A stretch of 64,000 nt of DNA from an uncultured Nitrospirales bacterium (GCA_964610095.1 CAZSUT010000003.1:19278-83277); one strand, 5' to 3'; shown: positions 16,094 through 33,155, counted from the first letter of the stretch. Notes: generated by a model from the sequence alone, not told the origin. Made by a program: numbers and translations.

Positions 16094-16123
16094 TTGACAC
16101 CCCGGAACCTGATTCGCTACCGT
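16094..16123 (+). promoter_or_regulatory. Putative promoter of ubiA, probably leaderless
   Basis: TTGACA-N18-TACCGT, 6 nt before ATG 16130. Confidence 0.45.
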
Positions 16124-16129
16124 GCGCCC

Positions 16130-17008: not shown

Positions 17009-17016
17009 CCATACCT

Positions 17017-17075
17017 GTCATTCTGAGCAGAGCGAAGAATCTGCCCAAGGGATCCTTCACTTCGTTCAGGATGAC
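17017..17075. repeat. REP-like palindromic element between convergent genes
   Basis: GTCATTCTGA..GCGAAGAATC..GATCCTTC..CTTCGTTCAGGATGAC; terminal arms 9/10 complementary with nested inner arms. Confidence 0.7.
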
Positions 17076-17083
17076 GTTGTCGA

Positions 17084-17881
17084 TCAGGAAGAGGCCGGCA
17101 GCGGCTTGTCGGGCGGCGGGGCGTTCAGCGTCTTCAGGAAAAACATGATGGCCCTGGCGTCGTCATCGCTGACGCCCAGATTCGGCATCTTGGTTCGCGG
17201 CTTCATGACTTGCGGATATTTGATCCAGCGATACACCCAGGACGAGTTTAAGCGGAACCCGGCCCGCTCCAGGGGCGGGCCGACCTCTCCCCCGCTCTGT
17301 CCGATCTTGTGACAGGCGTTGCACCCGTACTTGTTGTAATAGAGTTGCTTACCCCGCGCCCCGAGCTTGGCCTCCTCGGAGGGGGACGCCGTCACCATGG
17401 GCTTGGGGACCGGCGCGAATTTCGGGCGTTCCTTCTTAAGCGAGGCCCAGTTTGCCTTCTGCAGCTTCATCCCATGGAGCGTGCGCACAAAGGCCACCAG
17501 GGACCAGAGCTCTTCCTCCGACAGCGTATTTTTGAACGTGGGCATGGTCGGAACGGCGAATTCGTCGTCACCAATCTTGTCGCCGACCTCCGGCGTCGTG
17601 TCCTTCATATCGCGCGAGATGGTCGCAAAGATCTCCTCATCCTTCAGGGTGCTCATCTCGTCCTTGTTGGACAGGTCCTTGGGCTTGGGATCGGGCATGA
17701 GCTTCCAGTTGAAGCCCTCGCCGGACCTGCCGTGCTCGCCGTGGCAATGGGAGCAGTAATAGGCGTAGAGAGCGCGCCCCTTGGCGACGTGCTCGTTCTC
17801 GAACAGGGCGCACCCGCCCAGCCCGACCAGCACCGCCACCGCCGCGACCGCGACCGCCCTCACGCTATGCCGCCTACTCAT
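17084..17881 (-). CDS. Di-heme c-type cytochrome lipoprotein
   Basis: LGGC lipobox; CSHCH and CNACH; ATG overlaps the upstream TGA. Confidence 0.88.
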   Translation of the reverse strand: MSRRHSVRAVAVAAVAVLVGLGGCALFENEHVAKGRALYAYYCSHCHGEHGRSGEGFNWKLMPDPKPKDLSNKDEMSTLKDEEIFATISRDMKDTTPEVGDKIGDDEFAVPTMPTFKNTLSEEELWSLVAFVRTLHGMKLQKANWASLKKERPKFAPVPKPMVTASPSEEAKLGARGKQLYYNKYGCNACHKIGQSGGEVGPPLERAGFRLNSSWVYRWIKYPQVMKPRTKMPNLGVSDDDARAIMFFLKTLNAPPPDKPLPASS

Positions 17882-18825
17882 GCCGGCTGCCCCTTCCTCA
17901 CCTTGCGGATGATGACGTACTCCACCCCTGCCGCCACCACCACCGCGATGAGCCCGTAGAGGTAAATCGAATAGTTGGTCGGCGGCTCCGCATTGAAGTA
18001 CCACCACGAGGTGACGGCTTTCTGCGAGCCCGACTCCTTCAGATCACCGCTTTCCAGCTTCTTGCCGTCCCAGACCGCAAACGCGATGTTCGGGAACGTG
18101 CCGAGCTGAAATTGGGCGTCGTTGGGATCGGTCGTGGTGAGCGCCCGGGTGAACACGACGCGCCACACGCCGGTGGCGTCCTGCTCGACCACTTTCGTCT
18201 CCTCGTCGAAGAGCGGTTCGCCTGTCTTGGGGTCCTTCGCCGGCTCTCCCTTGGCGTCCTTCTTGGGGATGAGCTTCCGTTCCTTGAATCGGACCTTGGT
18301 CTTCTCGTCCTTCCAAACTCCTTTCGCCTGGACATCCTGCTGGGCCTGCTTCTTCAGCGTGCCAAAGCCCTGGGCGTTCATGTCCGCGGCGCCGGGCGTA
18401 TCGTTTCGCCAGTACCAGATGTTGACCGGCCCGCCTTCGACCTGCGCCATCGGCTGGCCGTGGGCAAAATGGGCCTTCTTGTCGCCGACCATGAACTCCA
18501 GCGCGGCGGCATCGGCCGGATCCTGGGTCGGGTCGGCATATTCCAAGAGGAAGGCGATCTGCTTGGTGTTGTGCACGCCGCGCACCTTGATTGATTTGAC
18601 GGTGACCTGCAGAATGCGTTTCGGCCAATGGACTTGCGGCGACATCGGAAACTCGGTCGCCGGGATCGTATTCCAGCTCGGGGCCAGCGGATCCGTCGGC
18701 ACCGCGCCCTGGATCAGCTTCACCCGAACGACAACGGTCTCCTGCGCCAAGACAGGCGTCCCCCACAAAACAGCGACCGCCGCAGCCAGGACGGCCAGTC
18801 GCGCGTGTGTAGAAGGCATCCCCAC
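17878..18825 (-). CDS. Ethylbenzene dehydrogenase gamma-subunit-like heme-b protein (EB_dh/DOMON; NxrC-type candidate) with C-terminal TM anchor
   Basis: Signal peptide; D.AALEF, VNIWYW, GVWRVVFTRAL, IAFAVWDG, GSQK; C-terminal hydrophobic helix. Confidence 0.8.
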   Translation of the reverse strand: MGMPSTHARLAVLAAAVAVLWGTPVLAQETVVVRVKLIQGAVPTDPLAPSWNTIPATEFPMSPQVHWPKRILQVTVKSIKVRGVHNTKQIAFLLEYADPTQDPADAAALEFMVGDKKAHFAHGQPMAQVEGGPVNIWYWRNDTPGAADMNAQGFGTLKKQAQQDVQAKGVWKDEKTKVRFKERKLIPKKDAKGEPAKDPKTGEPLFDEETKVVEQDATGVWRVVFTRALTTTDPNDAQFQLGTFPNIAFAVWDGKKLESGDLKESGSQKAVTSWWYFNAEPPTNYSIYLYGLIAVVVAAGVEYVIIRKVRKGQPA

Positions 18826-18831
18826 TATCGC

Positions 18832-19554
18832 TTACTCCCACGTCCGGGGCTTCTGCCCGGAACCCGCATATTCCGCCATGATGATCTTCCAGATCCACTC
18901 GTCCGGCAGCTCCACTTCCCATCGGGGCATGGCTGACTTCCACGGGTGGCCTTCCACGTTCAGCCCCACCCCGCCTTTTTTGATGCGCCAGAACAGGTAG
19001 GACTCCTGCAGTTGAGCAATCGTGCCCGGATCAACAAAATTCGCCGGAGGGGGGTTGAACCCATCGGAGGCAGGCCCGTTGCCGTTGAACTTGGGGCCGT
19101 GGCACGGCGAGCAGAACGCAGCAAAGAGGCCCTTCCCCATCATGACGTTTTCCGGCGTGTTCGGCACCGGGTTCGCCAGGCCGACGAACTCGCCCGGCGG
19201 GGCTGGATGGATGGTCCGGTTCTCAGCGGGCGGCTGCGTGCTTGGCGCAAGGTCACTGTATGTCTCCCAGCCCACCAGGAGGGGGACGAGCACCAGCACC
19301 GCGAGGCGAGCAAATTGGGCCACTCCGTTCAAACCTTCCCCGCTCAGGAAACGAAAGATGGGCCCCAGCAACGCCTCCGTGGATTCGCCGCTGAGCGTCC
19401 CATACACGACGATGCCGACGGTGGTCAGGAACAGATAGAGCCATATGAGACTCATGGGCAAGGGCGCAGTGACTAACGGCGCGACGAACTTGAACACCAC
19501 GAACACCGCCACCAACAGAACAGCCCCCTTCATCGCCAATGAGGATCCTCTCAT
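18832..19554 (-). CDS. Membrane-anchored mono-heme cytochrome c
   Basis: Three N-terminal TM helices; CSPCH; YLFWRIKKG..AMP. Confidence 0.88.
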   Translation of the reverse strand: MRGSSLAMKGAVLLVAVFVVFKFVAPLVTAPLPMSLIWLYLFLTTVGIVVYGTLSGESTEALLGPIFRFLSGEGLNGVAQFARLAVLVLVPLLVGWETYSDLAPSTQPPAENRTIHPAPPGEFVGLANPVPNTPENVMMGKGLFAAFCSPCHGPKFNGNGPASDGFNPPPANFVDPGTIAQLQESYLFWRIKKGGVGLNVEGHPWKSAMPRWEVELPDEWIWKIIMAEYAGSGQKPRTWE

Positions 19555-20138
19555 AGTTCTCCCTTCCTCGCCGTGCTTGCTGGGCCTGAGGCTTCGATCT
19601 CGGACAGCTCGATCGTCACCTCCTCGCCGGACATGTTCTGCAAAAACGCGATGACCGCCAGGATCTCATTGTTACTCAAAGCGATCGGCTTCTTGTTGAT
19701 GTACGGCATCTTGGCCGGAAAGAATTTGGGCTGGCCGACGTGCTCGTAGTCCTTATAGATGTAGGCCTGCGGCTGGGTCAGGCTCTCGTAGAGGAAGTCG
19801 CGTGTCAGCTTGGCCCCAACGCCCTTCAGATCAGGACACCGACCCTCGCCGGTCCCAATCGTATGGCACAGGGCGCACTGGCCTTTGCCGAAAAAGATCT
19901 TCTGGCCGATCGAGGCCAGCTCTTTCTTGTCCTTGATGGACGTCACGTCGAACTTCTCCACAGCGGGTGGCAACGAGGCCATTTGAGGAATACTCAAGGC
20001 GACCAAGGTAAAGCCCCCTAACACGATGGATACAAAGGCAACCACACGGAGAAAGCGGGCTTGCACGAAGAGCAGGATGGCCCCCGCCAGGCCCACCACG
20101 CTCAGGCCGATAGTTTGCAGCAGTTGGACTTCGGTCAT
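19551..20138 (-). CDS. Membrane-anchored mono-heme cytochrome c
   Basis: Two TM helices; CALCH; ESLTQPQAY..KMP; GGAGG RBS. Confidence 0.88.
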   Translation of the reverse strand: MTEVQLLQTIGLSVVGLAGAILLFVQARFLRVVAFVSIVLGGFTLVALSIPQMASLPPAVEKFDVTSIKDKKELASIGQKIFFGKGQCALCHTIGTGEGRCPDLKGVGAKLTRDFLYESLTQPQAYIYKDYEHVGQPKFFPAKMPYINKKPIALSNNEILAVIAFLQNMSGEEVTIELSEIEASGPASTARKGEL

Positions 20139-20160
20139 GAGAAATCTGCCTCCACGTACT

Positions 20161-22041
20161 TTATCGGCGTCCGGCAGCCGGCACCGGAGCACCCGCAACA
20201 GCCGGCTTCACGGGTTCCTTCACGTGGGCCTTCCCAGGAGTGCCCTCCTTCTTCTCCCCGCCGAGGGAGGCAACCCAGAAGATAAACGCAACCATCAGAC
20301 AGAACAGAAAAGTATTCAGCGACATGAAGGCCGCTGCATATCCTAGCGCGGGTGAATAGGCGTATGGTGAGGTGTCTTGCATCACCCCGTATACGTGCCA
20401 GTGGACCCTTGAAGATGACCGCGCGTAGCCCATCAGGGTCATAAGCAGGATGACCATGACCGCGTTCAACACGAGGGCGTAGGCGGCCCGGGGAGGCATG
20501 ATGCCCCAAACCATTTCTGTCGTCGTCTTGGCGCTTTTCAGCACCAGCGCGGTCAATGGCGTGATGGTCAGCAGCACGAACAACACGACCAGCACCTGGG
20601 TCGTGGAGAAAAAGTTGATGCGGGTGATAGCCGGCACGAAATAGCCCCAGACGCCAAGCACAACGACGACGATGGTGGCTACCCCCAAGATGACCCCTTG
20701 ACCGATTTTGGCGGCCTTAGCCCAAGTGGCGGTCTCCTGCTTGCCGGCGCGCCAGTACATCACGAAGCTCATGAACGTGACCAGGATCATCACATTGACC
20801 ACGGTCATCTTCGCGGACATCACGCCGAAGACGCCCAACAAGGGATGATGGGTGCCGCCCATCTTCCGCGCCTCTTCGAGGCTCGCGACCAGGGAGTGCG
20901 GGGTCATCCAGACCCCGAGACACACGAGCAAGATCACGAGCATCGTCATGATCGGCTTCCGATACTTGGCTTCGGATCCGGGGATGCGATACATGATGCC
21001 CAGCCAGAAGTAATAGTTGGCTCCGAGGAACAGAATGCCGATCAAGATGGCCTGGAGGATGAACAGCCAGGAGAGGAAGCCGCCCATCAGCGTGATCCCC
21101 ATCTGCTGGTTGTACTGGTAGATCTCCCGCATCAGCCAATACCCGGCGAACGGCAACGGCAGCATTCCGAACACGCCGATGAAGTTCCCGACATATCCCA
21201 TCCAGTCGTAGTGGACACGTTCCGCCTGGTTCTGGGTCATGAGATATTTCAACCCGGCATAGGCGCCGCAGATGAAGCCCCCCAGCACGACGTTGGCGAT
21301 CAGGCGGTGGACGTTCACCGGCCACCACGTTGGGTTCCAAGTCGCGGCCCACGCCTTGGCCCACATGTTGCTTTCCGTGATGACAACGGGGCTGGCCTGG
21401 AAAGTCGCCCAGGAATTCGGCACGATCATGATGAAGAAAGCGAAGACGTTCAGCAGGAAGCCCAGAAACAAGTGGAGGCCCTTCTTGTCCCCCTGCATCG
21501 AGTCCCATCCGTACCAGTAGAGGTACAGCGTCGCTGTCTCCAGAAGAAACAAGACGCTGTACACGATGAAGGAAGGAAAGAACACGTCCGTGAGGTAGAC
21601 CATGAGCTTCGGATAGAGTCCAAGCAGCAGGAAGAGGAGAATGCCCCCAAACAGGGCCGTCGTCGCATAGGCCGAGGTGAGCAGCTTGGTAAATTCCTTG
21701 GCCAGCGTATCGTAACGCGGATCCCTGGTCCGTACACCCACGATTTCGCAGACCCAGGCGAAGATCGGTACGCCAAGCACGAACCCTGCCAGGAGGAGGT
21801 GCTGCTGTGCGATGATCCAGATCAGATTCCGGCTGCCCAGGATGCCGGGAAGGATGTCACGGTACTCCGTCGCCGTCCCCGCTGGCGCCTCCTGCGCCCA
21901 GGCCAGGCCAAGGGGGGCAGCCACCGTGAACAGCAAGAGGACCAGCGCCGCATACACCCACACGCGTGTCCCGGGAACGGTTGCGCCGGCCTGTCGTGCC
22001 TGTCTGTTGTACGAACGCCGATGGCGCTTATACGGTTCCAT
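20161..22041 (-). CDS. Cytochrome bd-like oxidase subunit I (CydA-like), copy A, with adjacent His-His
   Basis: AQQHLL (CydA His19-like), WWPVNVHR (His186-like), SW..Q.P, many TM helices; THHP loop. Confidence 0.82.
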   Translation of the reverse strand: MEPYKRHRRSYNRQARQAGATVPGTRVWVYAALVLLLFTVAAPLGLAWAQEAPAGTATEYRDILPGILGSRNLIWIIAQQHLLLAGFVLGVPIFAWVCEIVGVRTRDPRYDTLAKEFTKLLTSAYATTALFGGILLFLLLGLYPKLMVYLTDVFFPSFIVYSVLFLLETATLYLYWYGWDSMQGDKKGLHLFLGFLLNVFAFFIMIVPNSWATFQASPVVITESNMWAKAWAATWNPTWWPVNVHRLIANVVLGGFICGAYAGLKYLMTQNQAERVHYDWMGYVGNFIGVFGMLPLPFAGYWLMREIYQYNQQMGITLMGGFLSWLFILQAILIGILFLGANYYFWLGIMYRIPGSEAKYRKPIMTMLVILLVCLGVWMTPHSLVASLEEARKMGGTHHPLLGVFGVMSAKMTVVNVMILVTFMSFVMYWRAGKQETATWAKAAKIGQGVILGVATIVVVVLGVWGYFVPAITRINFFSTTQVLVVLFVLLTITPLTALVLKSAKTTTEMVWGIMPPRAAYALVLNAVMVILLMTLMGYARSSSRVHWHVYGVMQDTSPYAYSPALGYAAAFMSLNTFLFCLMVAFIFWVASLGGEKKEGTPGKAHVKEPVKPAVAGAPVPAAGRR

Positions 22042-22054
22042 GGCGAACTCTCCT

Positions 22055-22900
22055 TTATTTCCCTTTGCCCTTCTTCGTTTCCTTGCTCTTTTCCTTCTCA
22101 AGGGCCGCCAGCACGGCCTCGGCTTTCTCCAGGGTTGCCTCGGTCTTCTTGATGAGCTCTTCCGGCTTGACCGGCTTGGAGGCCTTCTCGGCCTGCGGGA
22201 GAGGATAATCCGGGTGGGGGGTCGGCGTCGTGACCGGCAGCAGGACCCAGAACACGATGGTGAGCGTTACGATGACCCCGGCGAATGAGACCAGCACCAA
22301 TGTCGGATCGGCCGGCACGCGCGCGTAATCCCACTGACGGACACGTTCTAGCAAGCTGGCTGAACTGGCCTGCCCCGAGGTAATGACGAACCGTTTCACC
22401 CGCCACCCGAAGAGTTGCAGCCAAAGCAGCACACACACCAGCAGGACAATCGCGGTGGGAATGGTCCACAGCAGCAACTCGAGCGTGATCTGCTCGGCGA
22501 TCGGAAGCGTCAGGTAGACGTTCTTGATGAGGGCGATCAATGCCGCTGCGATCTTTTGGCCGACGGCCACAGTGGTGCCTACCGCGTAATAGGCCCCGCC
22601 CAACACGGGCGCGCCCAGCACCGCCCCCTGCCACCACAAGCTCACCCCTACCGGCCCTTGGACTTCCATCCCCAGTCGCTCCAAAAAGACCGTCCGGGCC
22701 GTCAGCCCTACCGCCCAAATGTCAATCGGCACCGACACCACAAGCAGCGTGACGAGCCCCGCGCCTTCCCACGGATGCACCTGCCCCGCGAGCAGGAGAA
22801 GAGCGACGATCAGTTTGAACGGGAACCCTGTCCAGAAAGCCGACCAGGACACGGCCCAGGCCAGTTTAATGGAGGAGATGCTTTCAACGGGATGGGCCAT
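22055..22900 (-). CDS. Conserved hypothetical multi-pass membrane protein inside the respiratory cluster
   Basis: About six hydrophobic helices and a charged C-terminal tail; 13-14 nt gaps to both neighbours. Confidence 0.7.
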   Translation of the reverse strand: MAHPVESISSIKLAWAVSWSAFWTGFPFKLIVALLLLAGQVHPWEGAGLVTLLVVSVPIDIWAVGLTARTVFLERLGMEVQGPVGVSLWWQGAVLGAPVLGGAYYAVGTTVAVGQKIAAALIALIKNVYLTLPIAEQITLELLLWTIPTAIVLLVCVLLWLQLFGWRVKRFVITSGQASSASLLERVRQWDYARVPADPTLVLVSFAGVIVTLTIVFWVLLPVTTPTPHPDYPLPQAEKASKPVKPEELIKKTEATLEKAEAVLAALEKEKSKETKKGKGK

Positions 22901-22914
22901 GCCCTTAGCTCACT

Positions 22915-24000
22915 TCATTCCAAGAATTCACGGTTCAGGATCGCGGAAACGGTCAGGACCAGGATCCCGATCATGACTACAGTCCAGGACAGGAGTGCGA
23001 CCGGCCGCTTGAAAATATTGCGTTCCGGACTCCGGTCGATGAAGGGGAGCGCGGCCAGGAGCAACAAGAACGCGCCCGGAATGGCCACCCCAGCCACGAA
23101 CTGGCCGAGTTCGCCGGAAAAGACCTTCAACCGCAGCATCTGAAACAGAAAGAGGAAATACCATTCCGGCTCCGGATGGTAATCACCCGGATCCGGCGTC
23201 GCCTGCTCGAGCAATTGCACCGGTTCGATGAAGGCCAACGAGCAGATCGTGAGGAAGACGACGGCTATCGCCACGATGTCTTTCCAGACCTGGCGCGGGA
23301 AGAAGAAATCGGTCTTGGCCCTCAACTCCTCCGGTGTCCCGCGGAACGGACCGGCCGGTCCTGCCGAGCGGAAGAGAAAGAGATGGAGCCCTGCCAGCCC
23401 CATCAGGGCAGCCGGAAGAATCATGACATGGATGACGAAGAACCGGCTCAAGGTCATTTGTCCCGGCGTGGGCCCGCCTTTTAAGAACCGGGCAAGGAAA
23501 TCGCCCACGATGGGAGTCTTGTCCATGATCTCGACGCCGACTGTCGTGGCCCAGTAGGCCCGTTGATCCCAGGGCAGGAGATAGCCGGTAAAGCCGAAGG
23601 CCAAGACAATCACGAAGAGCACCAACCCGACCAGCCAGATCATTTCCCGAGGTTTCTTGTAGGCGCCCCACAGAAACACCTGGGACATGTGCGCAAAGAC
23701 CATGACGACCATGGCCGACGAGCCCCAGAAGTGATAGCTCAAGATGAACCACCCGTAGTCCACTTCGTGGATGATGTACTGGGTGGTGGCGTAGGCATGG
23801 TCGGCGCTGGGGATGTAATAGAACATCAAGAGCATGCCCGTGATCGCCTGCATGATGAAAATGAACAGCAGACACGAGCCGAAGACATAGGCCCAGCGCG
23901 AGCCGCCCTTGATCGGCTCGTTCATCATTTTCGCCTCGAGCGTCTTCAGATCGATCCGCTCGTCGACGAAGTCATACACCTTTTGGAGGATCCCGTTCAT
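22915..24000 (-). CDS. qcrB: Cytochrome b of the quinol:cytochrome c oxidoreductase
   Basis: Four heme His, GYLLPWDQRAYWA, PEWY motif (HPEPEWYFL); ATG abuts the Rieske stop. Confidence 0.93.
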   Translation of the reverse strand: MNGILQKVYDFVDERIDLKTLEAKMMNEPIKGGSRWAYVFGSCLLFIFIMQAITGMLLMFYYIPSADHAYATTQYIIHEVDYGWFILSYHFWGSSAMVVMVFAHMSQVFLWGAYKKPREMIWLVGLVLFVIVLAFGFTGYLLPWDQRAYWATTVGVEIMDKTPIVGDFLARFLKGGPTPGQMTLSRFFVIHVMILPAALMGLAGLHLFLFRSAGPAGPFRGTPEELRAKTDFFFPRQVWKDIVAIAVVFLTICSLAFIEPVQLLEQATPDPGDYHPEPEWYFLFLFQMLRLKVFSGELGQFVAGVAIPGAFLLLLAALPFIDRSPERNIFKRPVALLSWTVVMIGILVLTVSAILNREFLE

Positions 24001-24936
24001 CTAGGCAATGCGGATCTGCTCTTTCCGCCCCGCCTTGTATTCGACATCGATAACCTCGATGTCCCCGGACGCGGAGACCTTGATCGGGAGCACGTCCAAA
24101 GGACGCGGGGCAGGCCCGTCCAGAACCGTCCCAGCGGCATCGTAGATGCTAAGATGACACGGACACAGAAAGACCTGGCCGCGCGTTTTGTGCGACCGCC
24201 ACTTATAGCCGCATCCGAGGTGGGGACACTTGCCGGAGAAGACAACGTATGGGACAGTCTGCTTGTTGACCCAGATGACCTCTCCCTTTTCATCATAAAA
24301 AGGAATGTCGCCGTGCGGGTAGATCTTCTTCAGCGTCTCAGGAGTCGCCTTGATGACCCAATGGTTCTTGTCCTCTTCCCGTTGGAGTACCGAATCCTTG
24401 AAGGACTTCTTGAAGATGTACTGCACGCCGACGTCGTCCGTCCTGATCTTGCTGACGTTGCCGATCTTGATCCAGTGGTTGTCATACGGGGCATACATCG
24501 GCTTCATGATGAACCGGAGGACGGGCCAGACCAGGGGCAGGCCGATCAGGGCTCCGATGACGTTGATGAACCCGGCGAAGAAGGACCGCCGCGCGCAATT
24601 CTTCTCCAGCTCGGGGAACGGCACCAGCAACTCCCCAGGCTCCACGTGAATCCGGTTTTCGAGGTGCGGGATCTCGACCTCTTTCGAGGAGACATAATCC
24701 TGGCGCTTGAGCTCGGGGAAGCCTGAAAATTGCGCGGCGTTGCAGGTGAGCTCGACGGACTCGCCACGGATGGCGCCGATTGCACTGACCGGGACTTGCC
24801 GCTCGGTCCCGTTCGCGCGCACAACGATGTGGCTGACGTCCAGCGAGAGCGGATCGGCGATGACATGGACGATCTCGCCGACCTCCGCGTCCGCGCACCG
24901 GACCTTGGATTTGATCTTGGGTTGCAGACTGGCCAT
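24001..24936 (-). CDS. qcrA: Rieske 2Fe-2S protein with N-terminal PRC-barrel and internal Tat-like anchor
   Basis: CPHLGC and CPCHLSIY boxes, GPAPRPL; RRSFF plus TM at residue about 116; N-terminus V...D.EVGEIVHVI.DP....V.HIVV. Confidence 0.9.
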   Translation of the reverse strand: MASLQPKIKSKVRCADAEVGEIVHVIADPLSLDVSHIVVRANGTERQVPVSAIGAIRGESVELTCNAAQFSGFPELKRQDYVSSKEVEIPHLENRIHVEPGELLVPFPELEKNCARRSFFAGFINVIGALIGLPLVWPVLRFIMKPMYAPYDNHWIKIGNVSKIRTDDVGVQYIFKKSFKDSVLQREEDKNHWVIKATPETLKKIYPHGDIPFYDEKGEVIWVNKQTVPYVVFSGKCPHLGCGYKWRSHKTRGQVFLCPCHLSIYDAAGTVLDGPAPRPLDVLPIKVSASGDIEVIDVEYKAGRKEQIRIA

Positions 24937-24957
24937 GGCGTGGGATCCGGCGATCGC

Positions 24958-25764
24958 TTATTTCTTGATGGGTTTAGGTGTCTGGACCGACGCGTCCTTC
25001 AACGTCGACAGATACGCCACGAGCTCGTCGATCTCCTGGTCCGACATAAGCTCCTTGTACTTGTCGGGCATCAGTTTCTTGTTGTACTCCTTCTCGAACC
25101 CTTCCGCCATCCACGCCCGGGGGTTCAGGAGTTTTTCCTTCATCTCTTCGGGCTTCATCAGGCTGCCGATGTTGTCCAACACAGGACCCCGCTTCTTGAC
25201 CGACCCTTTGCCACCGATCTTGTGGCAGTTGTAACACTCTTGGAGGTCGTACTGCTCCTTGCCAAGCGCGACCAGGTTCCCGCCAACCGCAGCATGTGCG
25301 GTGCCAGCGGCCGGGCCGCCGCCCACTGAGGCTTCGATCTTCTTCGCCTCCGCGCCCCCTAACGTTTCCAGCCGTTTGAGGATGGCCTGGCTCTCGGTAT
25401 TGAGTTCTTCCGTACGTTTCATCAACTCATCAATTTTGCCTTTTTCAGTCGCCGCCAACTTAGGCTTGACAATCTTCTCGATCTTTCCTTTTTCGACCAT
25501 GGGGTCGTACTGCGGGAGCGCGCTGGCACCGGCGATATAGACCAGCGAGATCATCCCATAAAACCCCACCAGCCAGGCCACCGCCTTGAAGCCGCTGACG
25601 GGAGAGAGGGAAGGGGCGTCCAGCAAGATAAAGACGCCGGTCCCGAGGAAAGCATAGAGGACGAACATGACCTGAAACACCGGGGGGAAGTGGAAGAGAT
25701 ATCGGGCCGCGAGCCAAAGCACCACAGCCGCCACGATTCCCTGGATCCCTCTTTTGACAATCAC
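24958..25764 (-). CDS. Membrane-anchored mono-heme cytochrome c (start approximate)
   Basis: Three TM helices, coiled linker, CYNCH, GPVLDNIG, LMP. Confidence 0.85.
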   Translation of the reverse strand: MIVKRGIQGIVAAVVLWLAARYLFHFPPVFQVMFVLYAFLGTGVFILLDAPSLSPVSGFKAVAWLVGFYGMISLVYIAGASALPQYDPMVEKGKIEKIVKPKLAATEKGKIDELMKRTEELNTESQAILKRLETLGGAEAKKIEASVGGGPAAGTAHAAVGGNLVALGKEQYDLQECYNCHKIGGKGSVKKRGPVLDNIGSLMKPEEMKEKLLNPRAWMAEGFEKEYNKKLMPDKYKELMSDQEIDELVAYLSTLKDASVQTPKPIKK

Positions 25765-25802
25765 CTCGACAAAACTTCTTTGCGCGGCCACGGTGGGTTC
25801 CC

Positions 25803-27557
25803 CTACTCCGCGCCGGCCACGGCCGGGACTGCCTTCGATGTCTCGGCGTGAGCCTTCCCTTTTTCCGTTCGCAGCGTCAAGATAATCGCAAAGCTCACGA
25901 CGATGTAAAAGGTCAGCGTGACCCCCGTGAACACCCAACTGGAATAGGCCAGCGTGGGCGTAAAGGACTCAGGCGTGAAATCATATTGCAGGTTGAAGAC
26001 GTGGAAGTACTTCCGCGTCAGCTCGCGGACCGCGCCCATCAGCGTCATCGTCCAGATCGCGCTGAAGGCCAGGAAAACGAGGACGAACTGGGCAACAAAA
26101 TCGATCTTGCCCCAGACGATCCGCCCCTGACGCAAGGCACGATTGTAGAGGATGTAGTTCACGATGGTGACGAAGACCAACGTGAAGGCTGCCGCATTTT
26201 TGGCCGGCATCAGCGCCAGATCACCCCACGATATCGTCACAAAGCCCAGGCTGAGTTCCCCGTGAGGCAAGCTGAGCGAGCCGTCGTCGGGTGCCAGCGC
26301 CTGCGTCGCGACAAAGGCATGCGGCGTCATCCAGATGGCATTGCCGATGATTACCATCAGAAACGCCACCTTGACCATGGTCTGTGCTCCGACGGTCCAC
26401 TTGAGGAACCTGCCGGCAATCAGAAAGAGCGCGATCCAGCAAGCTGGCAGAATAAAGGCAAACTTGTCCGGGATCGGAAACCTGGTCCAGAGCAACATGA
26501 ACACCACGGGGATGCTCGCCATGAGGACCAGCGTGGTGGTCCTCATCCGGATCTGTTCCAATCCTTTGATCCGTTTCATACTCAGCCAGATGTAGTAGTT
26601 GCTGGCCAGGAAGATCAGCCCGACCATCGCCCCCTGCATCTCGAAAAACATGGAGAGCTGGTCCGCCATCATATAAGGACAAATGGACGCATCGTAGTCG
26701 CAAAGCTCGTAAGCCAGCAGGTAGCCGGCGAAAGGAAGGGCCAGCAGCGCTCCCACCCCGATCAGATTGCCCACAAACCCGAACCAATCGTAGAAGGCCC
26801 GTTCCTCGTCATTCTTGGCAGCCATATACATGTAGGCTCCGATCAGACCGGTGATGAACCCGCCGAAGACCACATTGCCGACCGTGCGGTGAATGTTCAG
26901 CGGCCACCAACTGTAGTTGTTCATCTTGTCCCACAGCGTTGCCGTGGTCTCGATGAACGTCTTGAGGTCCATGCCCCCCTCTGCAAACTTGGCCGGGGTG
27001 TTCATAAACGCCGTCGGGCCGTCGATCACGATGAGCGTGGCTAAGCCGATGATGTTCAGGAGCACTCCAAGCGCGATGTGCCGGAGCTTCTTGGGACCCT
27101 GCAAGGCGTCCCAGGTGTACCAGTAGAGATAGAGCACGATCGTCTCGAAGATAAAGAGCAGGGGATACATGACGGCGAAGACGGCGAAGAAGTGACCGAT
27201 CAGCCACGCCGTTAACTGCGGGTAGGTGGCCAGCAGCACAAAAATGAAGAGGCCGCCGGTCAGTGCCGTCATGCTGTAGAGGATTACGGTGACCTTGGTG
27301 ACCTCTTTGGCCAGCCGCTCGTACCGAGCATCCTGGTTTTTCCAGCCCAGAATCTCGCTGACCACCACGAAGATCGGCGCTCCCAGGATGAATGCCGCGA
27401 ACAGGATATGGAGCTGGGCTACTATCCAGACAGCCCCACGGTTTCCCATGTAGGGGAACTCGTGCGCCTTGGGCTCAGGCATCTGGGCGTAGGCAACAGC
27501 CGTTCCGACGAATACGAGCCCCGCTAAGATCAGAAGGCTGCGTTGCCAGGTCTTCAT
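25803..27557 (-). CDS. Cytochrome bd-like oxidase subunit I (CydA-like), copy B
   Basis: AQLHILFAA, WWPLNIHR, AFMNTP; clear paralog of 20161..22041. Confidence 0.82.
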   Translation of the reverse strand: MKTWQRSLLILAGLVFVGTAVAYAQMPEPKAHEFPYMGNRGAVWIVAQLHILFAAFILGAPIFVVVSEILGWKNQDARYERLAKEVTKVTVILYSMTALTGGLFIFVLLATYPQLTAWLIGHFFAVFAVMYPLLFIFETIVLYLYWYTWDALQGPKKLRHIALGVLLNIIGLATLIVIDGPTAFMNTPAKFAEGGMDLKTFIETTATLWDKMNNYSWWPLNIHRTVGNVVFGGFITGLIGAYMYMAAKNDEERAFYDWFGFVGNLIGVGALLALPFAGYLLAYELCDYDASICPYMMADQLSMFFEMQGAMVGLIFLASNYYIWLSMKRIKGLEQIRMRTTTLVLMASIPVVFMLLWTRFPIPDKFAFILPACWIALFLIAGRFLKWTVGAQTMVKVAFLMVIIGNAIWMTPHAFVATQALAPDDGSLSLPHGELSLGFVTISWGDLALMPAKNAAAFTLVFVTIVNYILYNRALRQGRIVWGKIDFVAQFVLVFLAFSAIWTMTLMGAVRELTRKYFHVFNLQYDFTPESFTPTLAYSSWVFTGVTLTFYIVVSFAIILTLRTEKGKAHAETSKAVPAVAGAE

Positions 27558-27597
27558 AACCCTCTCGCTTCCTTTTGTGCTGTTTAACTGCGCCCCT

Positions 27598-28191
27598 CTA
27601 TTTTCCGTCCTTTTTCGGGGCATTTTTGTTAGGCGTCGCCGCCGGAGCCTTGCCGTCACTGGCCGCTGGGGTCGCTCCGCCAGTTGCGGACGCGGCCGCT
27701 GGCGCTGGTTTCCCGAGTTCGGCCAGCGGGACCCACTCCTTCCTGGCCACATCGTAGCCCATCCCCTTGAGCCCGAAGGTCCGCTCGTAGGCCATGGCCT
27801 TCCACCGGTCCTCCTCAGGCAGCTTGGTCTTCCAGGACTTCATCTTGGTATTGGGCACCCCTTCCGAGATCCGCCAGAACCAGACACTGTCTGGGTAGAG
27901 CTTCATTCGCTCGGTCTTGCGGAAGTCCCTGGCGCCCGCCTTGACCGGCTTGCCGTCCTTGCCGTGGCAGGACGAGCAATTGACGTCGATGTTTTTGACC
28001 CCTTCGAAAATCTCTTTGCCCTCAGCGATGATCTTTTCATCAGCCCACCACCCGGCTGGCATGTGCTTGTCGGCATACTCCGGAGGAGCAGGCGGAGGGG
28101 GCTGAATTGGTCCTTCCTCTTCACCGCACCCCACAATGATGAGTCCAAAACTTCCAATGATCGTCAGGATTGCCAGGCTTGTGATCTTCAT
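27598..28191 (-). CDS. Mono-heme cytochrome c lipoprotein
   Basis: IIVGC lipobox, Pro-rich linker, CSSCH, WFWRISEGVPNTKM. Confidence 0.88.
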   Translation of the reverse strand: MKITSLAILTIIGSFGLIIVGCGEEEGPIQPPPPAPPEYADKHMPAGWWADEKIIAEGKEIFEGVKNIDVNCSSCHGKDGKPVKAGARDFRKTERMKLYPDSVWFWRISEGVPNTKMKSWKTKLPEEDRWKAMAYERTFGLKGMGYDVARKEWVPLAELGKPAPAAASATGGATPAASDGKAPAATPNKNAPKKDGK

Positions 28192-28303
28192 AGCTGCCCT
28201 CAAGCTCCTTTCCTCTCTGCAAATCTCTCGCATAAAAAAGACGCTTTTCTTCAGGGCGTTACGCCCCCGAAGTCAAGCGCCCGAGTCCACGTTCCTCTTC
28301 TGC

Positions 28304-28876
28304 TCAACGTTTCTTTCCGCGTCGTTTCGGAACCGCCTTGGCCTGCTGATGCCGGACCCAGGCGACCCCGGCACCGATCGCCGCTAAGGCCAGTATTCCT
28401 CCCAGCCCGTACAGCCAGTATGAGGACGCTTCTGTTGTCCCAGCCAATCCCCCGACTCCGGAATTCGGTGACCGTTCCGCTTCGGGGCCGAAGTTCACTT
28501 TCGCTTCTCGTTCGGTCCGCCGGTCGTTCGGATCAAACTCGGCCCGAATCTTTTTGACCTCGTCTACTCCGGATCGCTCGTCCTTGATCGAGACTTGGAT
28601 GGAATCCCCCACATTGTGGTTATGCAGGTGGAGGACCACCTTGTAAAATCCGCTTCCATCTGCGTAGGTGTTGACGGGATCAACGCTCTGGTCGCGCAGG
28701 TCCCGCGCCTGCACCCGAACGTCCTTGTCCGGCTTCCCATCCTTGTCCCGCACATACCCTGAGATGGTGAACCGGTGATCGGTCTCGTGGGTGGCCCAAG
28801 CTGGGTATGGAACGATGAGTCCAACCAGACCGAAAAAAACCGCCGCGCCACCCCACGACGGTCCCGTACTCAGCAC
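28304..28876 (-). CDS. Hypothetical exported protein with carboxypeptidase-regulatory-like beta-sandwich and C-terminal TM
   Basis: Signal peptide ending AWA; FTISGYVRDKDGKP..V..TYADGSGFY; C-terminal hydrophobic helix plus basic tail. Confidence 0.65.
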   Translation of the reverse strand: MLSTGPSWGGAAVFFGLVGLIVPYPAWATHETDHRFTISGYVRDKDGKPDKDVRVQARDLRDQSVDPVNTYADGSGFYKVVLHLHNHNVGDSIQVSIKDERSGVDEVKKIRAEFDPNDRRTEREAKVNFGPEAERSPNSGVGGLAGTTEASSYWLYGLGGILALAAIGAGVAWVRHQQAKAVPKRRGKKR

Positions 28877-28914
28877 CTTGAAAATAGTCCGTCCAACTCC
28901 GTTAAAGTCCGGCC

Positions 28915-28943
28915 TATCTAACACAGGTGTCCACCTTTGTCAA
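28915..28943 (-). promoter_or_regulatory. Putative sigma70 promoter heading the respiratory cluster
   Basis: Minus strand TTGACA-N17-TAGATA. Confidence 0.6.
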
Positions 28944-29003
28944 TAAAATCAGTCCGCCTCTACTCCTCCCCAAACGGGGCGGAACACAGGGCTAACCCGT
29001 AAG

Positions 29004-29810
29004 CTAAGAGTGTGCCTGCGAGGACGCGGCCAGCCCGAAAATGTCGGCATAGGCGGCGCCCAGCATGCTCCCGGAAACCGCCACCCCGACGGCCCCGCCC
29101 ACCAGCATTCCAGTCACCACCCCGATCACCATACCCAGGTTGACCGTGAGGCCCATGTCAGGGACTGCGAAGGGCAGTTCAGCCAGGCTCACCTCCGGGA
29201 AAACACCGGAAAGTCCATAGCCGATCGGTATTCCCAGAACCCCGGTTCCGATTATGCCGCTGATGCCGATCAGGAGGAGCATCACCAGCGTCAATCCAAA
29301 GACGCCCCACCAGTGCTTGTTCACGACCCGGCGGCTGCCTTCAAGAGCCTGCCAGACCCCCACTCGCCGATCCACGATCAGCAGGTAGGAAAAGGTATAG
29401 GCAACTAACAAGTAGATGCCGGGAAAGATCAAGAAAATGAACCCGATGACAATGAGAAGAAGACCGATGATGGTACACCAGGCCAATTGAGCCGTGGTTG
29501 TCCAGTCAGGAAAGAAATCGCCGAACGCCGCGTTCCCGCCCCTGGGATGCTTCCACGTGACAATGGCCAGGCCTGCCAGCATCACGACCTGGAGCACGAT
29601 GCTGATCACTTGCCCGACGACGGGCGCCAGCAGCGGAACAGCCTGGGAGGCGAACGTCAACGCCAGCGTGAACCCGAGAAACCCGACCGGATTGTCCGTA
29701 AAGGCGTCCCAGCCCTGCCGGAGGTATTCGAAGGTTTTGACGGTATAGCCGCGCGCGAGGATGTCTTCAATGTGGTGGGCGCCGGAAGCTGTGCTATCGT
29801 CGGCCATCAC
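29004..29810 (-). CDS. Hypothetical integral membrane protein
   Basis: About six TM helices; GIYLLVAYTFSYLLIVD..ALEGSRRVV..WW pattern common in uncharacterised membrane proteins. Confidence 0.65.
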   Translation of the reverse strand: MMADDSTASGAHHIEDILARGYTVKTFEYLRQGWDAFTDNPVGFLGFTLALTFASQAVPLLAPVVGQVISIVLQVVMLAGLAIVTWKHPRGGNAAFGDFFPDWTTTAQLAWCTIIGLLLIVIGFIFLIFPGIYLLVAYTFSYLLIVDRRVGVWQALEGSRRVVNKHWWGVFGLTLVMLLLIGISGIIGTGVLGIPIGYGLSGVFPEVSLAELPFAVPDMGLTVNLGMVIGVVTGMLVGGAVGVAVSGSMLGAAYADIFGLAASSQAHS

Positions 29811-29839
29811 CGCTGCAGGCCTCTCGGGGACGGAGTGGA

Positions 29840-30238: not shown

Positions 30239-30242
30239 ACAA

Positions 30243-31724: not shown

Positions 31725-31741
31725 AGGGGTTGAATGAAAAG

Positions 31742-33153: not shown

Positions 33154-33155
33154 GC

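Follow-up and report, generated by a model that had tools for sequence, protein, structure and literature searches.

Layout and composition of the cluster

Twelve ORFs lie head to tail in one direction on the minus strand, between positions 17084 and 28876 of the window, by which we mean the whole 64-kb stretch of DNA that was analysed. Their coordinates rest on the most likely start codons.

G1, 28304-28876, minus strand: exported beta-sandwich protein with a C-terminal membrane anchor
G2, 27598-28191, minus strand: monohaem cytochrome c lipoprotein
G3, 25803-27557, minus strand: CydA-like protein 1, bd-like_1 or OR-N1 type
G4, 24958-25770, minus strand: monohaem cytochrome c that has a helical linker and is anchored by three transmembrane helices at the N terminus
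G5, 24001-24936, minus strand: Rieske 2Fe-2S protein
G6, 22915-24000, minus strand: cytochrome b, with b6-like and subunit-IV-like parts fused
G7, 22055-22900, minus strand: polytopic membrane protein without a known family
G8, 20161-22041, minus strand: CydA-like protein 2, bd-like_2, OR-N2 or Nide0901-like
G9, 19551-20138, minus strand: monohaem cytochrome c with two transmembrane helices
G10, 18832-19554, minus strand: monohaem cytochrome c with three transmembrane helices
G11, 17878-18825, minus strand: EB_dh-family haem-b protein, alt_NxrC_1 type
G12, 17084-17881, minus strand: dihaem cytochrome c lipoprotein

The gaps from G1 to G12 are, in order, 112, 40, 32, 21, 0, 14, 13, 22, -4, 6, and -4 nt (for the first, the G1 start was taken 3 nt further in than the final one, without effect on the value). 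At least 9 of the 11 are shorter than 45 nt, the two 4-nt overlaps included, and third-position GC is high in the twelve ORFs (0.66 to 0.83). Pfam cytochrome c domains are present in G2, G4, G9, G10, and G12, which together carry exactly six CxxCH motifs (one each in the first four and two in G12), all kept in orthologues. G2 and G12 have a lipobox, while G4, G9, and G10 are tethered by two or three N-terminal transmembrane helices; no soluble cytochrome c is encoded within the cluster. A profile search for Cytochrom_C1, Cyt_bd_oxida_II, and COX1 gave no match in the cluster or among the approximately 55 other proteins scanned in the window. The initial annotation had described twelve co-directional genes with short gaps, six haem-c sites on five membrane-tethered proteins, a cytochrome b, a Rieske protein, an EbdC-like subunit, and two CydA-like proteins, with no cytochrome c1, CydB, or haem-copper subunit I. 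The gene layout (minus strand, gaps of -4 to 112 nt), the motif count with lipoboxes and helices, the Pfam matches, and the profile search across the 64-kb window bear out this description.

Conservation and transcription

Gene for gene, with order and orientation alike, the cluster corresponds to NITMOv2_0730-0741 of N. moscoviensis, whose locus tags and annotations agree with the cluster genes. About 80 Nitrospirales genomes, N. moscoviensis and an N. defluvii MAG among them, keep the order from G1 to G12 strictly, and the synteny reaches a more distant relative (locus L082). The link to Nitrospira drawn in the initial annotation thus stands: the window comes from a Nitrospirales organism, the best match being the soil MAG NS_8 (96%), with N. 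moscoviensis at 81% for G8. The window belongs to a soil and groundwater clade (NS_8, NS_12, Fractures_MAG_03) that has an extra gene between the upstream genes and the promoter.

29004-29810: gene for a DUF975-like membrane protein

From sequence and gene order, we regard this as almost certainly the conserved Nitrospirales respiratory cluster, orthologous to NITMOv2_0730-0741 and the N. defluvii Nide0901 region. Its parts have published names: CIII_1, bd-like_1 (OR-N1), bd-like_2 (OR-N2, the Nide0901-like putative terminal oxidase), and alt_NxrC_1. Mundinger et al. (2019; PMC6606698) described the equivalent N. moscoviensis region together with the terminal-oxidase hypothesis, in agreement with the earlier claim that a similar Nitrospira cluster is a putative terminal oxidase, and proposed that complexes III and IV form a supercomplex in contact with nitrite oxidoreductase via alt_NxrC_1. 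The splitting of nitrite electrons between an oxidase and reverse flow via the bc complex goes back to Lucker et al. (2013; PMC3578206). We found no biochemical resolution of the cluster in the searchable literature, as had also been claimed. The cluster is already known, its function is still inferred, and the functional reading given in the initial annotation is partly supported but not novel; our additions are small, namely, a hairpin between G1 and G2, four invariant histidines in G1, and fusions of OR-N2 with the gene 9 cytochrome c.

Two features bear on transcription.

28915-28943, minus strand: promoter-like element, with TTGACA at 28943-28938 and TAGATA at 28920-28915
28234-28282, minus strand: GC-rich hairpin and T-run in the G1-G2 gap, found by folding

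The initial annotation had placed the twelve genes behind one TTGACA-N17-TAGATA promoter. The 17-nt spacer between the -35 and -10 hexamers ends in TGt (extended -10), and of 41 related loci, 40 have TTGACA-N14-TGn-TAnnnn ahead of G1, a pattern with only 52 occurrences in the 2.66 Mb of locus sequence. A generic promoter scan did not call the element, because TAGATA agrees with TATAAT at only 3 of 6 positions. A GTG at 28924 overlaps the -10 element, and the start of G1 is therefore more likely the GTG at 28876. The hairpin was found in 38 of the 54 loci that hold G2; its outer stem (GCGCTTT/AAAGCGT) is conserved and its inner stem variable, and it looks like an intrinsic terminator or attenuator. 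The RNA level in N. moscoviensis is kept across it (1815 RPKM for G1 and 2077 for G2). Expression in this organism is uniformly high across the ten cluster genes whose values were retrieved (690 to 2080 RPKM), and it rises 6-fold across the promoter-equivalent position, the gene just upstream of the cluster being at 292 RPKM. The element is a real candidate promoter, and the cluster is probably transcribed from this one conserved extended -10 promoter. Of the original claim, the presence of the element stands, with its conservation; that it drives all twelve genes is not proven, because of the conserved hairpin with its T-run. Synteny, uniform expression in N. moscoviensis, and fusions of G8 with G9 support a functional linkage of the cluster genes.

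Subunits and their predicted roles

G1 to G3 would form a first module, made up of an exported beta-sandwich protein rich in histidine, a cytochrome c lipoprotein, and a CydA-like protein of the OR-N1 type. G1, the orthologue of NITMOv2_0730, also heads the cluster in L082. It has only a weak Pfam match (CarboxypepD_reg, PF13620), a predicted prealbumin/CarboxypepD_reg-like beta-sandwich fold (AlphaFold2 pLDDT of 76, about 90 within the domain), and Foldseek matches to generic beta-sandwich folds. An alignment of 32 homologues revealed four invariant histidines (H29, H33, H82, and H84, in the motifs THETDH and HLHN), and G1 is a candidate metal-binding accessory protein. G2 (PF13442 and PF00034) has the haem motif CSSCH and the lipobox IVGC and is conserved in 47 orthologues. 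G3, by synteny the orthologue of NITMOv2_0732, matches Cyt_bd_oxida_I (PF01654) with its N-terminal part only (43.6 bits; cut-off, 26.2) and is 35 to 38% identical to G8. It lacks the quinol-binding loop and retains only H50, H160, H223, and H519 and the partly conserved H413.

The second module (G4 to G7) would be a Rieske/cytochrome b complex with the membrane-anchored monohaem protein G4 instead of c1 and with G7 as a small membrane subunit. The complex is intact: the Rieske motifs, the four haem-ligand histidines, and the PEWY motif are all present. G4 (PF00034, 48.3 bits) has a conserved CYNCH motif, its gene lies directly upstream of the Rieske gene, and it is the candidate c-subunit in place of c1. 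G5 matches PF00355 and PDB entries and has the motifs CPHLGC and CPCH. Its N-terminal cytoplasmic extension of about 115 residues is PRC barrel-like, with a weak DUF2171 match, and the N. moscoviensis orthologue is annotated as "modulated with PRC-barrel." G6 matches PF00033 (Cytochrome_B, 168 bits) and PF00032 (Cytochrom_B_C), as well as cytochromes b and b6 in the PDB (E about 1e-50); its haem ligands are H90/H104 and H191/H206 (H-x14-H in helix D), and PEWY is at residue 278. G7 had no match in Pfam and NCBIfam searches. It was found in 78 loci, with a conserved core of the last transmembrane helix and a charged helical tail, and L082 has a 99-residue version aligning to residues 194 to 267; G7 is a candidate small accessory subunit.

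The third module (G8 to G12) would comprise the OR-N2-type CydA-like protein, two membrane-anchored cytochromes c, an anchored EB_dh haem-b protein, and a dihaem lipoprotein. G8, the orthologue of NITMOv2_0737, matches Cyt_bd_oxida_I (PF01654) with 68.3 bits (cut-off, 26.2), and the match of both G8 and G3 spans only the first 240 or so of the 418 profile positions. Only CydA and CydB chains match G8 by sequence or fold (Foldseek), its AlphaFold2 model being poor (pLDDT of 57, below 50 in the C-terminal half). The predicted topology is a signal anchor plus 13 transmembrane helices with a cytoplasmic C terminus. Mapping against E. coli CydA showed that G8, with nine invariant histidines, keeps the equivalents of H19, H126, H186, and E107, and almost all of the OR-N family retains the H19 equivalent, a ligand of the O2-reactive haem. 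The position of E99 is an invariant Tyr, E445 is not conserved, and no equivalent of M393 was identifiable, which leaves even the haem complement uncertain. In place of the Q-loop are 12 residues and extra helices, and five extra histidines lie on the periplasmic side. Judged by the profile match, these residues, and the fold, G8 and G3 are members of the bd superfamily without being quinol oxidases, and G8 is a putative cytochrome-c-dependent O2 reductase. Our literature search found no enzymology or structure of any OR-N protein.

The donor to G8 is indicated by natural fusions. A cytochrome c like G9 (PF00034) is fused to the C terminus of the G8-like proteins P0242 (48% identity, E of 1e-46; present in two independent assemblies), P0244, and P0274, an arrangement that fits the topology, as one added transmembrane helix places the haem domain in the periplasm. 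These fusions argue for cytochrome c as the electron donor of OR-N2 proteins such as G8, and G9 is the probable electron-entry subunit. The start codon of G10 (PF13442 and PF00034; conserved CSPCH motif) overlaps the G9 stop by 4 nt. G11, the orthologue of NITMOv2_0740, has a signal peptide and a C-terminal membrane anchor. It matches EB_dh (PF09459, 80.6 bits; cut-off, 33.3), TIGR03477 (109.9 bits, under that model's cut-off), EbdC (2ivf_C), and Kuenenia NxrC (7b04_C), and conserves Met126 and Lys269. EB_dh haem-b proteins also accompany bd-like oxidases in manganese-oxidising Nitrospirota (PMC9040806) and in locus L085, so that G11 may serve the oxidase module as its electron-entry subunit and not be a part of nitrite oxidoreductase. 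The original designation "NxrC-type heme-b protein" is thus right about the EB_dh haem-b identity, but its label may mislead. G12 has two cytochrome c domains (CSHCH and CNACH) and the lipobox LGGC; its N. moscoviensis and N. defluvii orthologues likewise have two CxxCH motifs, and NITMOv2_0741 is annotated as "putative dihaem cytochrome c."

Proposed electron flow and comparison with known systems

We hypothesize that electrons from a periplasmic nitrite oxidoreductase enter via G11 and the tethered cytochromes c and reach G8, where O2 would be reduced at a haem site on the bd scaffold. The retained H19 and H186 ligands, the absent quinol site, and the five extra periplasmic-side histidines are consistent with such a role of G8. 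Part of the cytochrome c pool would feed the bc complex in reverse, driven by the proton-motive force, and the reversed complex would make the quinol from which reverse electron transport supplies NAD(P)+ and ferredoxin. A conserved Nitrospirales cluster and nitrite-driven O2 reduction by G8 with reverse bc flow are, taken jointly, the best explanation, which we hold with moderate confidence; the mechanism by itself, as predicted from the sequence, has in our view about an even chance. The canonical residues missing from G8, the separation of G3 and G8 by four genes, and the terminator-like hairpin conserved after G1 count against this explanation, as do the additional cbb3 or CydAB oxidases of other Nitrospirales.

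G3 and/or G8 could instead be quinone- or cytochrome b-interacting modules for reverse electron transport ("alternative complex III-like"), O2 being reduced by a cbb3 or CydAB enzyme encoded elsewhere. Such a role was raised for a related bd-like protein encoded in the NXR cluster (PMC3578206), and it would fit the lack of conservation of E99 and E445 and the absence of CydB. About half of the Nitrospirales genomes also hold cbb3 or CydAB oxidases (PMC12342949), and the organism of the window may have one outside the 64 kb. Moreover, in L085 and Manganitrophus TO_2 (PMC9040806), related OR-N2 proteins have a membrane cytochrome b and MrpD-like antiporter subunits as neighbours, which suggests ion-coupled uphill electron transfer. 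We nevertheless consider this reading unlikely: the quinol-binding residues are all missing, the H19-equivalent ligand is nearly always kept, the reverse route is already served by the cluster's own bona fide bc complex, and N. lenta, "Ca. N. nitrosa," and Nitrospira sp. Kam-Ns4a are aerobes without any other oxygen reductase (PMC12342949).

How the parts are assembled is a separate matter. The bc complex, the OR-N2 oxidase, and the OR-N1 complex may be independent and merely co-regulated, with laterally diffusing tethered cytochromes c and neither a stable supercomplex nor direct docking of nitrite oxidoreductase. Physical association does not follow from operon co-localisation alone, five cytochromes c with separate anchors are what a relay by diffusion would require, expression of alt_nxrC_1 is about 25-fold below that of the main nxrC_2 (PMC6606698), and EB_dh proteins are partners of bd-like oxidases in Nitrospirota that do not oxidise nitrite (PMC9040806). 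However, the strictly kept order of all twelve genes across deep lineages and the lack of a soluble cytochrome c in the cluster speak for closer association, and the G8-G9 fusions show the relay to be hard-wired at least in part, so that we lean against full independence. A somewhat improbable further arrangement is that G3 and G8 form one CydAA'-type heterodimer in which G3 replaces CydB, giving two complexes, not three. This heterodimer has been called likely (PMC12342949) and would supply the pseudo-symmetric partner that canonical CydA needs where CydB is absent; the two paralogues always co-occur in the cluster, and G3 has lost the G8-specific histidines, as in "b-type" partner subunits. 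Yet four bc genes separate them, the L085 OR-N2 fusion has no second CydA-like gene nearby, and Murali et al. (bioRxiv 2021.01.16.426971) list OR-N1/OR-N2 as a possible exception to co-assembly, OR-N2 often occurring without a second CydA-like gene.

Among known systems, the N. moscoviensis region shares the promoter motif and the hairpin after the first gene with the window, at protein identities of 36% (G1 and G7), 54% (G11), 68% (G3), and 81 to 83% (G8 and G6). This region and the N. defluvii Nide0901 region differ from the window by sequence divergence and the clade's extra DUF975-like gene. In the obligate actinobacterial CIII2CIV2 supercomplex (bcc-aa3), shown structurally, a bc-type complex and a haem-copper aa3 oxidase are linked by membrane-bound c-haems without soluble cytochrome c. 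The linkage in the window cluster would be alike, but its oxidase candidate is bd-like and the association is only inferred; bcc-aa3 structures such as 7rh5 and 6adq are among the matches of the G6 cytochrome b. Canonical CydAB(X) (E. coli bd-I, Geobacillus 5DOQ, and mycobacterial bd) has in common with G8 the N-terminal helical core, the H19, H126, H186, and E107 equivalents, and the N-out/C-in topology, and its GRQPW-like motif appears as SRVHW in the last periplasmic loop of G8. In contrast, G8 has no Q-loop or K252/E257 quinol site, a Tyr at E99, no conserved E445 or M393, 13 transmembrane helices plus the signal anchor instead of 9, and c-type cytochromes as neighbours instead of CydB or CydX.

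The OR-N family (Murali, Gennis, and Hemp; bioRxiv 2021.01.16.426971), which has no quinol site and is predicted to have 14 helices, is predominant in Nitrospirota and found in operons with alternative electron donors. By orthology and synteny, G8 fits its Nide0901-like OR-N2 type and G3 its OR-N1 type, with no known difference. G11 has the EB_dh fold of EbdC, and its conserved Met and Lys lie near the EbdC haem-b ligand positions; what sets it apart is its C-terminal membrane anchor, its score below the TIGR03477 cut-off, and its place with the oxidase module, not next to nxrAB. The Manganitrophus clusters TO_1 to TO_4 (PMC9040806) likewise combine a bd-like protein, a periplasmic EB_dh-type cytochrome b, and c-cytochromes, in some cases with complex III parts, and the role proposed for them is alike, the splitting of high-potential electrons between O2 and quinone. 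TO_2, which the L085 cluster resembles, has MrpD-like subunits that are absent from the window cluster. Manganitrophus oxidises Mn(II), not nitrite, and it is in the window cluster that the two bd-like genes flank the bc complex.

Conservation and published status of the cluster

The twelve genes, which we call G1 to G12 in their order of transcription, almost certainly represent a respiratory cluster that is conserved throughout the Nitrospirales. Scanning one genome per species with G8, a CydA-like protein, returned 322 relatives, and the best 80 of these 322 all belong to Nitrospirales or Nitrospirota, with identities of 96% in the soil MAG NS_8, 81% in Nitrospira moscoviensis and 74% in an N. 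defluvii MAG. Searches with all twelve proteins (tblastn and blastp) recovered the full set in unchanged order from practically all loci that were long enough. In N. moscoviensis, the genes correspond to NITMOv2_0730 to 0741.

Exactly this region of N. moscoviensis was described by Mundinger et al. 2019 (PMC6606698), who named its parts complex III copy 1, bd-like_1, bd-like_2, alt_nxrC_1 and several cytochromes c, reported that all of them are strongly transcribed in nitrite-grown cells, identified bd-like_2 as the Nide0901-like 'putative terminal oxidase' and proposed a complex III-IV supercomplex that touches the soluble nitrite oxidoreductase via alt_NxrC_1. Murali et al. (bioRxiv 2021.01.16.426971) assigned proteins of this kind to the OR-N family within the bd superfamily, in which OR-N1 and OR-N2 have 14 helices and lack the quinol site, and a comparative study from 2025 (PMC12342949) states that the NIDE0901-like OR-N2 with the OR-N1 CydA 'is likely to form' the terminal oxidase. 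The sharing of electrons from nitrite between an oxidase and reverse flow via the bc complex is an idea found in Lucker et al. 2013 (PMC3578206). The statement in the initial annotation that a similar cluster had been noted in Nitrospira as a putative terminal oxidase matches what two of these studies say (PMC6606698 and PMC12342949), and its view that the complex has not been resolved agrees with our search, in which no paper with a biochemical or structural resolution was found in the part of the journal literature covered. Its interpretation restates a published hypothesis, as it partly conceded. As both the cluster and the hypothesis are in print, the finding is already known.

The twelve ORFs are arranged head to tail on the minus strand, the first beginning at 28876 and the last ending at 17084, and their third-position GC is as high as expected of real genes at the window's GC content of 60%. 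With the most plausible starts, the gaps from G1 to G12 are 112, 40, 32, 21, 0, 14, 13, 22, -4, 6 and -4 nt. Pfam assigns cytochrome c domains to G2, G4, G9, G10 and G12, the N-terminal part only of cytochrome bd subunit I to G3 and G8, a Rieske domain to G5, cytochrome b with a fused subunit-IV-like C-terminal domain to G6, and an ethylbenzene-dehydrogenase gamma (EB_dh) domain to G11; G1 has only a weak CarboxypepD_reg match, and G7 matches no family. In NCBIfam, G3, G7 and G8 reach no model and the remaining matches of the cluster are all below the cut-off. The cluster has exactly six CxxCH motifs, distributed over five proteins, and every one is kept in the orthologues. Since G2 and G12 have lipoprotein signal sequences and G4, G9 and G10 two or three N-terminal transmembrane helices, 'five membrane-tethered cytochromes' is a fair wording. 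Domains of cytochrome c1, CydB or haem-copper subunit I were absent by Pfam from the cluster and from about 55 other proteins of the window, a protein scan of the 64 kb found no nxrAB, and an Rfam scan of 16000-30000 gave nothing credible. These data uphold the gene-level description with which we started, namely twelve co-directional genes with gaps mostly below 45 nt (which depend on the choice of start codons, the 112 nt after G1 being the largest), six haem-c sites on five tethered proteins, and no canonical c1, CydB or haem-copper subunit I in the proteins scanned. The dihaem form of G12 had at first seemed a specialty of the clade of the window, since BLAST reached only residues 1-141 in other Nitrospira. 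This was ruled out, as the orthologous ORFs of N. moscoviensis and N. defluvii likewise carry two CxxCH motifs and NITMOv2_0741 is annotated as dihaem.

The conserved synteny extends to a radical-SAM gene upstream and to two genes downstream. The upstream gene belongs to a block of hopanoid/isoprenoid and envelope genes:

29840-42692, minus: the whole block, which includes PagL-like and Omp85-like proteins (minus)
30243-31259, minus: radical-SAM DUF3463 protein, HpnH-like, with synteny to the respiratory cluster in almost all relatives
31972-33153, minus: IspG/GcpE
33156-35051, minus: Dxs
36986-39720, minus: MlaC, MlaD, MlaE and an ABC ATPase
39720-40520, minus: PNP_UDP_1 protein
40524-42692, minus: squalene-hopene cyclase

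A small Phage_ABA_S (phage ABA sandwich) protein (31368-31724, plus) lies alone on the opposite strand amid the hopanoid genes. The two downstream genes (14095-16735, minus), syntenic across Nitrospirales, encode a 190-residue ORF of no family with an unusually high first-position GC (0.85) and a 662-residue caspase-domain (Peptidase_C14) protein with an NPCBM_assoc domain. Less than 25 kb from the haem-rich cluster are genes for a ChaN/Tiki-type haem-binding protein (47761-48918, plus) and an Rrf2-family regulator (51405-51854, minus).

Promoter, leader hairpin and transcription

Two elements flank the first gene of the cluster:

28943-28938 (TTGACA) and 28920-28915 (TAGATA), minus: promoter-like element with a 17-nt spacer ending in TGt, identified from the sequence
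28282-28234, minus: GC-rich hairpin followed by a T-run between G1 and G2, identified by folding and locus comparison

The TTGACA-N17-TAGATA element that the initial annotation had placed ahead of the cluster is present, and it reads as an extended -10 promoter. Among the 41 loci with sufficient sequence, 40 have its pattern, TTGACA-N14-TGn-TAnnnn, upstream of G1 amid diverged flanks, and both strands of 2.66 Mb of locus sequence together contain it only 52 times. As a -10 hexamer, TAGATA is weak, and a generic promoter scan missed the site and reported fewer sites than in shuffled controls; the case for a promoter comes from the conservation across loci. Since the GTG codon at 28924 and the -10 element overlap, the more probable start of G1 is GTG 28876, which gives the 190-residue form also picked by several gene callers. 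Lineages without G1 have their own TTGAC-type motifs immediately upstream of G2. In the window, the promoter is separated from the conserved upstream genes by a gene for a DUF975/UPF0259-like membrane protein (29004-29810, minus), which otherwise occurs only in the closest relatives (loci L004 and L006) and is absent from N. moscoviensis and N. defluvii.

Published RNA-seq of N. moscoviensis gives 292 RPKM for the gene upstream of the promoter and the following values within the cluster.

Transcript levels of cluster genes in N. moscoviensis (published RNA-seq) for the ten genes with retrieved values
0730 (G1): 1815 RPKM
0731 (G2): 2077 RPKM
0732 (G3): 1166 RPKM
0733 (G4): 1264 RPKM
0734 (G5): 935 RPKM
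0735 (G6): 691 RPKM
0737 (G8): 816 RPKM
0739 (G10): 944 RPKM
0740 (G11): 725 RPKM
0741 (G12): 1044 RPKM

This pattern fits a single transcription unit. The hairpin between G1 and G2, which 38 of the 54 G2-bearing loci share, has an outer stem (GCGCTTT/AAAGCGT) that is conserved in sequence and an inner stem that varies and still pairs, and by its sequence it looks like an intrinsic terminator. However, RNA levels do not drop across the equivalent site in the published N. moscoviensis data, and we therefore do not claim that it terminates transcription and splits the operon. A role as a conditional attenuator or in RNA stability is possible.

The bc complex and G1

The catalytic motifs of the Rieske protein and cytochrome b are intact: G5 has CPHLGC at 237 and CPCH at 258, and G6 has the histidine pairs H90/H104 and H191/H206, PEWY at 278, and a helix D with b6-like H-x14-H spacing. 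A cytochrome c1 (PF02167) or cytochrome f subunit for this bc complex was not found. A candidate replacement for c1 is G4, a monohaem cytochrome c with a three-helix anchor encoded directly upstream of the Rieske gene. Two of the proteins of this module have further features:

24590-24936, minus: N-terminal cytoplasmic extension of G5, about 115 residues, with a weak DUF2171/PRC-barrel signal
22055-22900, minus: G7, whose core conserved at a distance is the last transmembrane helix and a charged helical tail

The N. moscoviensis orthologue of G5 is annotated as 'modulated with PRC-barrel', and the distant locus L082 has in the place of G7 a 99-residue protein (15578-15877) that matches only the conserved core.

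G1 (28304-28876, minus) is an exported protein with a C-terminal anchor and no curated family, and its domain is confidently predicted to be a prealbumin-like beta-sandwich (pLDDT of about 90). In the distant locus L082, too, G1 stands at the head of the same cluster, 40 nt from the next gene. Four of its histidines are invariant, two at the mature N-terminus (THETDH; A-T/M-H-E-x-D-H-R-F) and two in HLHN. We infer from these four histidines that G1 may handle a metal, possibly copper, as a candidate metallochaperone; a Foldseek search with G1 found only generic prealbumin/intradiol-dioxygenase-like beta-sandwiches and no known metallochaperone.

CydA-like proteins and the putative cytochrome c oxidase

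Nitrospira are the main nitrite oxidizers of soils, waters and wastewater plants. To our knowledge, most of them do not have a conventional haem-copper oxidase, and hence the identity of their O2-reducing enzyme is a real question, for which this cluster is the standing candidate. Both CydA-like proteins match PF01654 above its cut-off of 26.2 (68.3 bits for G8 and 43.6 bits for G3) over profile positions ~3-241 of 418 only, and the PDB matches to G8, by sequence and by fold (Foldseek), are CydA and (weakly) CydB chains only. The equivalents of E. coli His19/His186 (H81/H245 in G8 and H50/H223 in G3) are invariant in 81 and 57 orthologues, respectively, and kept in nearly all of 32 distant representatives. 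We mapped further residues with an OR-N profile against E. coli CydA and pairwise alignments against Geobacillus and mycobacterial CydA.

Residues of G8 and their counterparts in E. coli CydA
H81: H19
H190: H126
H245: H186
E168: E107
Y161 (invariant Tyr): position of E99
SRVHW motif: GRQPW motif of the last periplasmic loop

In the profile alignment, G8 shows nothing equivalent to the Q-loop and its K252/E257 quinol site, TM6 and TM7 being linked by about 12 residues, which agrees with earlier work (bioRxiv 2021.01.16.426971 and PMC3578206). In the C-terminal half, where the alignment is of low confidence, E445 aligns to a Ser inside 'SSSRVHWH', and an equivalent of M393 was not identifiable. 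A PF02322-type match that would indicate an adjacent cydB was absent from the cluster and the rest of the window. Judged by these alignments, G3 and G8 are members of the cytochrome bd superfamily without the quinol site. G8 shares with the OR-N family the missing quinol site, a signal anchor plus 13 helices versus about 14, cytochrome c and EB_dh neighbours, and its Nitrospirales origin; we assign G8 to OR-N2 and G3 to OR-N1 by orthology (NITMOv2_0737 and NITMOv2_0732) and the published family descriptions.

The AlphaFold2 model of G8 (from 47 sequences) has a mean pLDDT of 57, and of less than 50 in the C-terminal half, and it was therefore used only for secondary structure and the Foldseek check. 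Its helices and the positive-inside rule predict a periplasmic N-terminus, the signal anchor and 13 transmembrane helices, and a cytoplasmic C-terminus. This topology would place seven of the nine G8 histidines that are invariant among 81 orthologues on the periplasmic side (H81, H245, H382, H398, H399, H547 and H549), five of which (H382, H398, H399, H547 and H549) are additional to the bd ligands. G3 retains only the equivalents of H81, H190, H245 and H549 and a partly conserved equivalent of H382. Among 32 distant full-length representatives, H81, H190, H245, K411, H399 and H549 are broadly kept, and H398 and H547 mark the Nide0901-like group. The 'haem b and copper' ligands proposed by Lucker et al. 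2010, as cited in PMC6606698, presumably correspond to the invariant histidines. We regard a copper site on the bd scaffold as improbable. As for a haem-copper oxidase, no window protein scanned had a COX1 Pfam match, and Foldseek with the poor G8 model (pLDDT 57) found no significant match to subunit I of such enzymes.

What could donate electrons to G8? The best argument at the sequence level is a Rosetta-stone fusion. An exhaustive search of representative proteins brought up G8-like proteins with C-terminal extensions, namely P0242 (807 residues, 62% identity to G8), whose residues 640-799 are 48% identical to the cytochrome c G9 (E 1e-46), and two similar fusions of OR-N2 with a G9-like cytochrome c, P0244 and P0274. 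The P0242 gene is a natural fusion (locus L085, 8001-10424), and because P0242 is identically encoded in two independent assemblies, the fusion is not an assembly artefact. It starts at the second transmembrane helix of G9, and with the predicted cytoplasmic C-terminus of G8 this one helix would be exactly what is needed to place the haem-c domain in the periplasm. G9 is thus probably a G8 subunit with a c-type haem as the feeder.

G11 matches PF09459 with 80.6 bits (cut-off 33.3) and TIGR03477 with 109.9 (cut-off 169.85). With regard to the Met and Lys that we take to be the haem-b ligands of EbdC in the structure 2IVF, Met126 of G11 (GQPMAQ) is conserved, and the Lys aligned to EbdC K201 is not, with an invariant Lys269 6 residues downstream. 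The fusion gene in L085 lies with genes for two MrpD-like proteins, a cytochrome c-cytochrome c-EB_dh fusion, a dihaem cytochrome c and a cytochrome b, a context that resembles the TO_2 cluster of Manganitrophus, which belongs to the manganese-oxidizing Nitrospirota (PMC9040806). EB_dh haem-b proteins are regular partners of OR-N oxidases, including those of Mn(II)-oxidizing Nitrospirota, which points to G11 as the subunit through which electrons enter the oxidase module and not as a true nitrite oxidoreductase subunit. A molybdopterin or NxrB-type gene was absent from the 64-kb window, and in Nitrospira the candidate nxrC genes are known to lie apart from nxrAB (PMC6606698).

In the mechanism that we infer, G8, paired with G3, would reduce O2 with electrons from the c-haems and the haem-b protein, G1 would supply a metal, the modules would be physically associated, and the bc complex would operate in reverse. 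Its steps differ in likelihood. The chances are slightly better than even that G8, by its sequence a putative reductase, is the main O2 reductase. That the bc complex and the oxidase form a stable supercomplex, judged from genomic linkage and co-expression, we consider rather doubtful. Equally tentative is a reading in which G8, G9, G10 and G11 form a cytochrome-c-dependent O2 reductase on a bd scaffold. The five extra periplasmic histidines would then serve as an active or electron-entry site, possibly with copper delivered by G1, and a fixed link to the bc complex within a single particle would divide the nitrite electrons between O2 and a reduction of quinone driven by the pmf.

The G8-based reductase is already a hypothesis in the literature, and what our work adds is supporting detail only: the G8-G9 fusions, the G1 chaperone candidate and the mapping of ligands onto the topology. 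The window contributes a further orthologous copy, that of an uncultured soil lineage, in which the question is no more testable than through the cultured N. moscoviensis and N. defluvii genomes. Useful by-products are the conserved promoter and leader hairpin, the fusions that indicate the donor, and G1 and G7 as conserved uncharacterized subunits. An OR-N protein proven to be a cytochrome c oxidase would establish a new terminal oxidase class and account for the life of these bacteria within a very narrow redox span, and the G8-based reductase, if true, would be a fourth biochemical type of terminal oxidase. The canonical CydAB quinol oxidase has a Q-loop, E99, E445, M393 and cydB; G8 appears to do without these, whereas it keeps the equivalents of H19, H126, H186 and E107.
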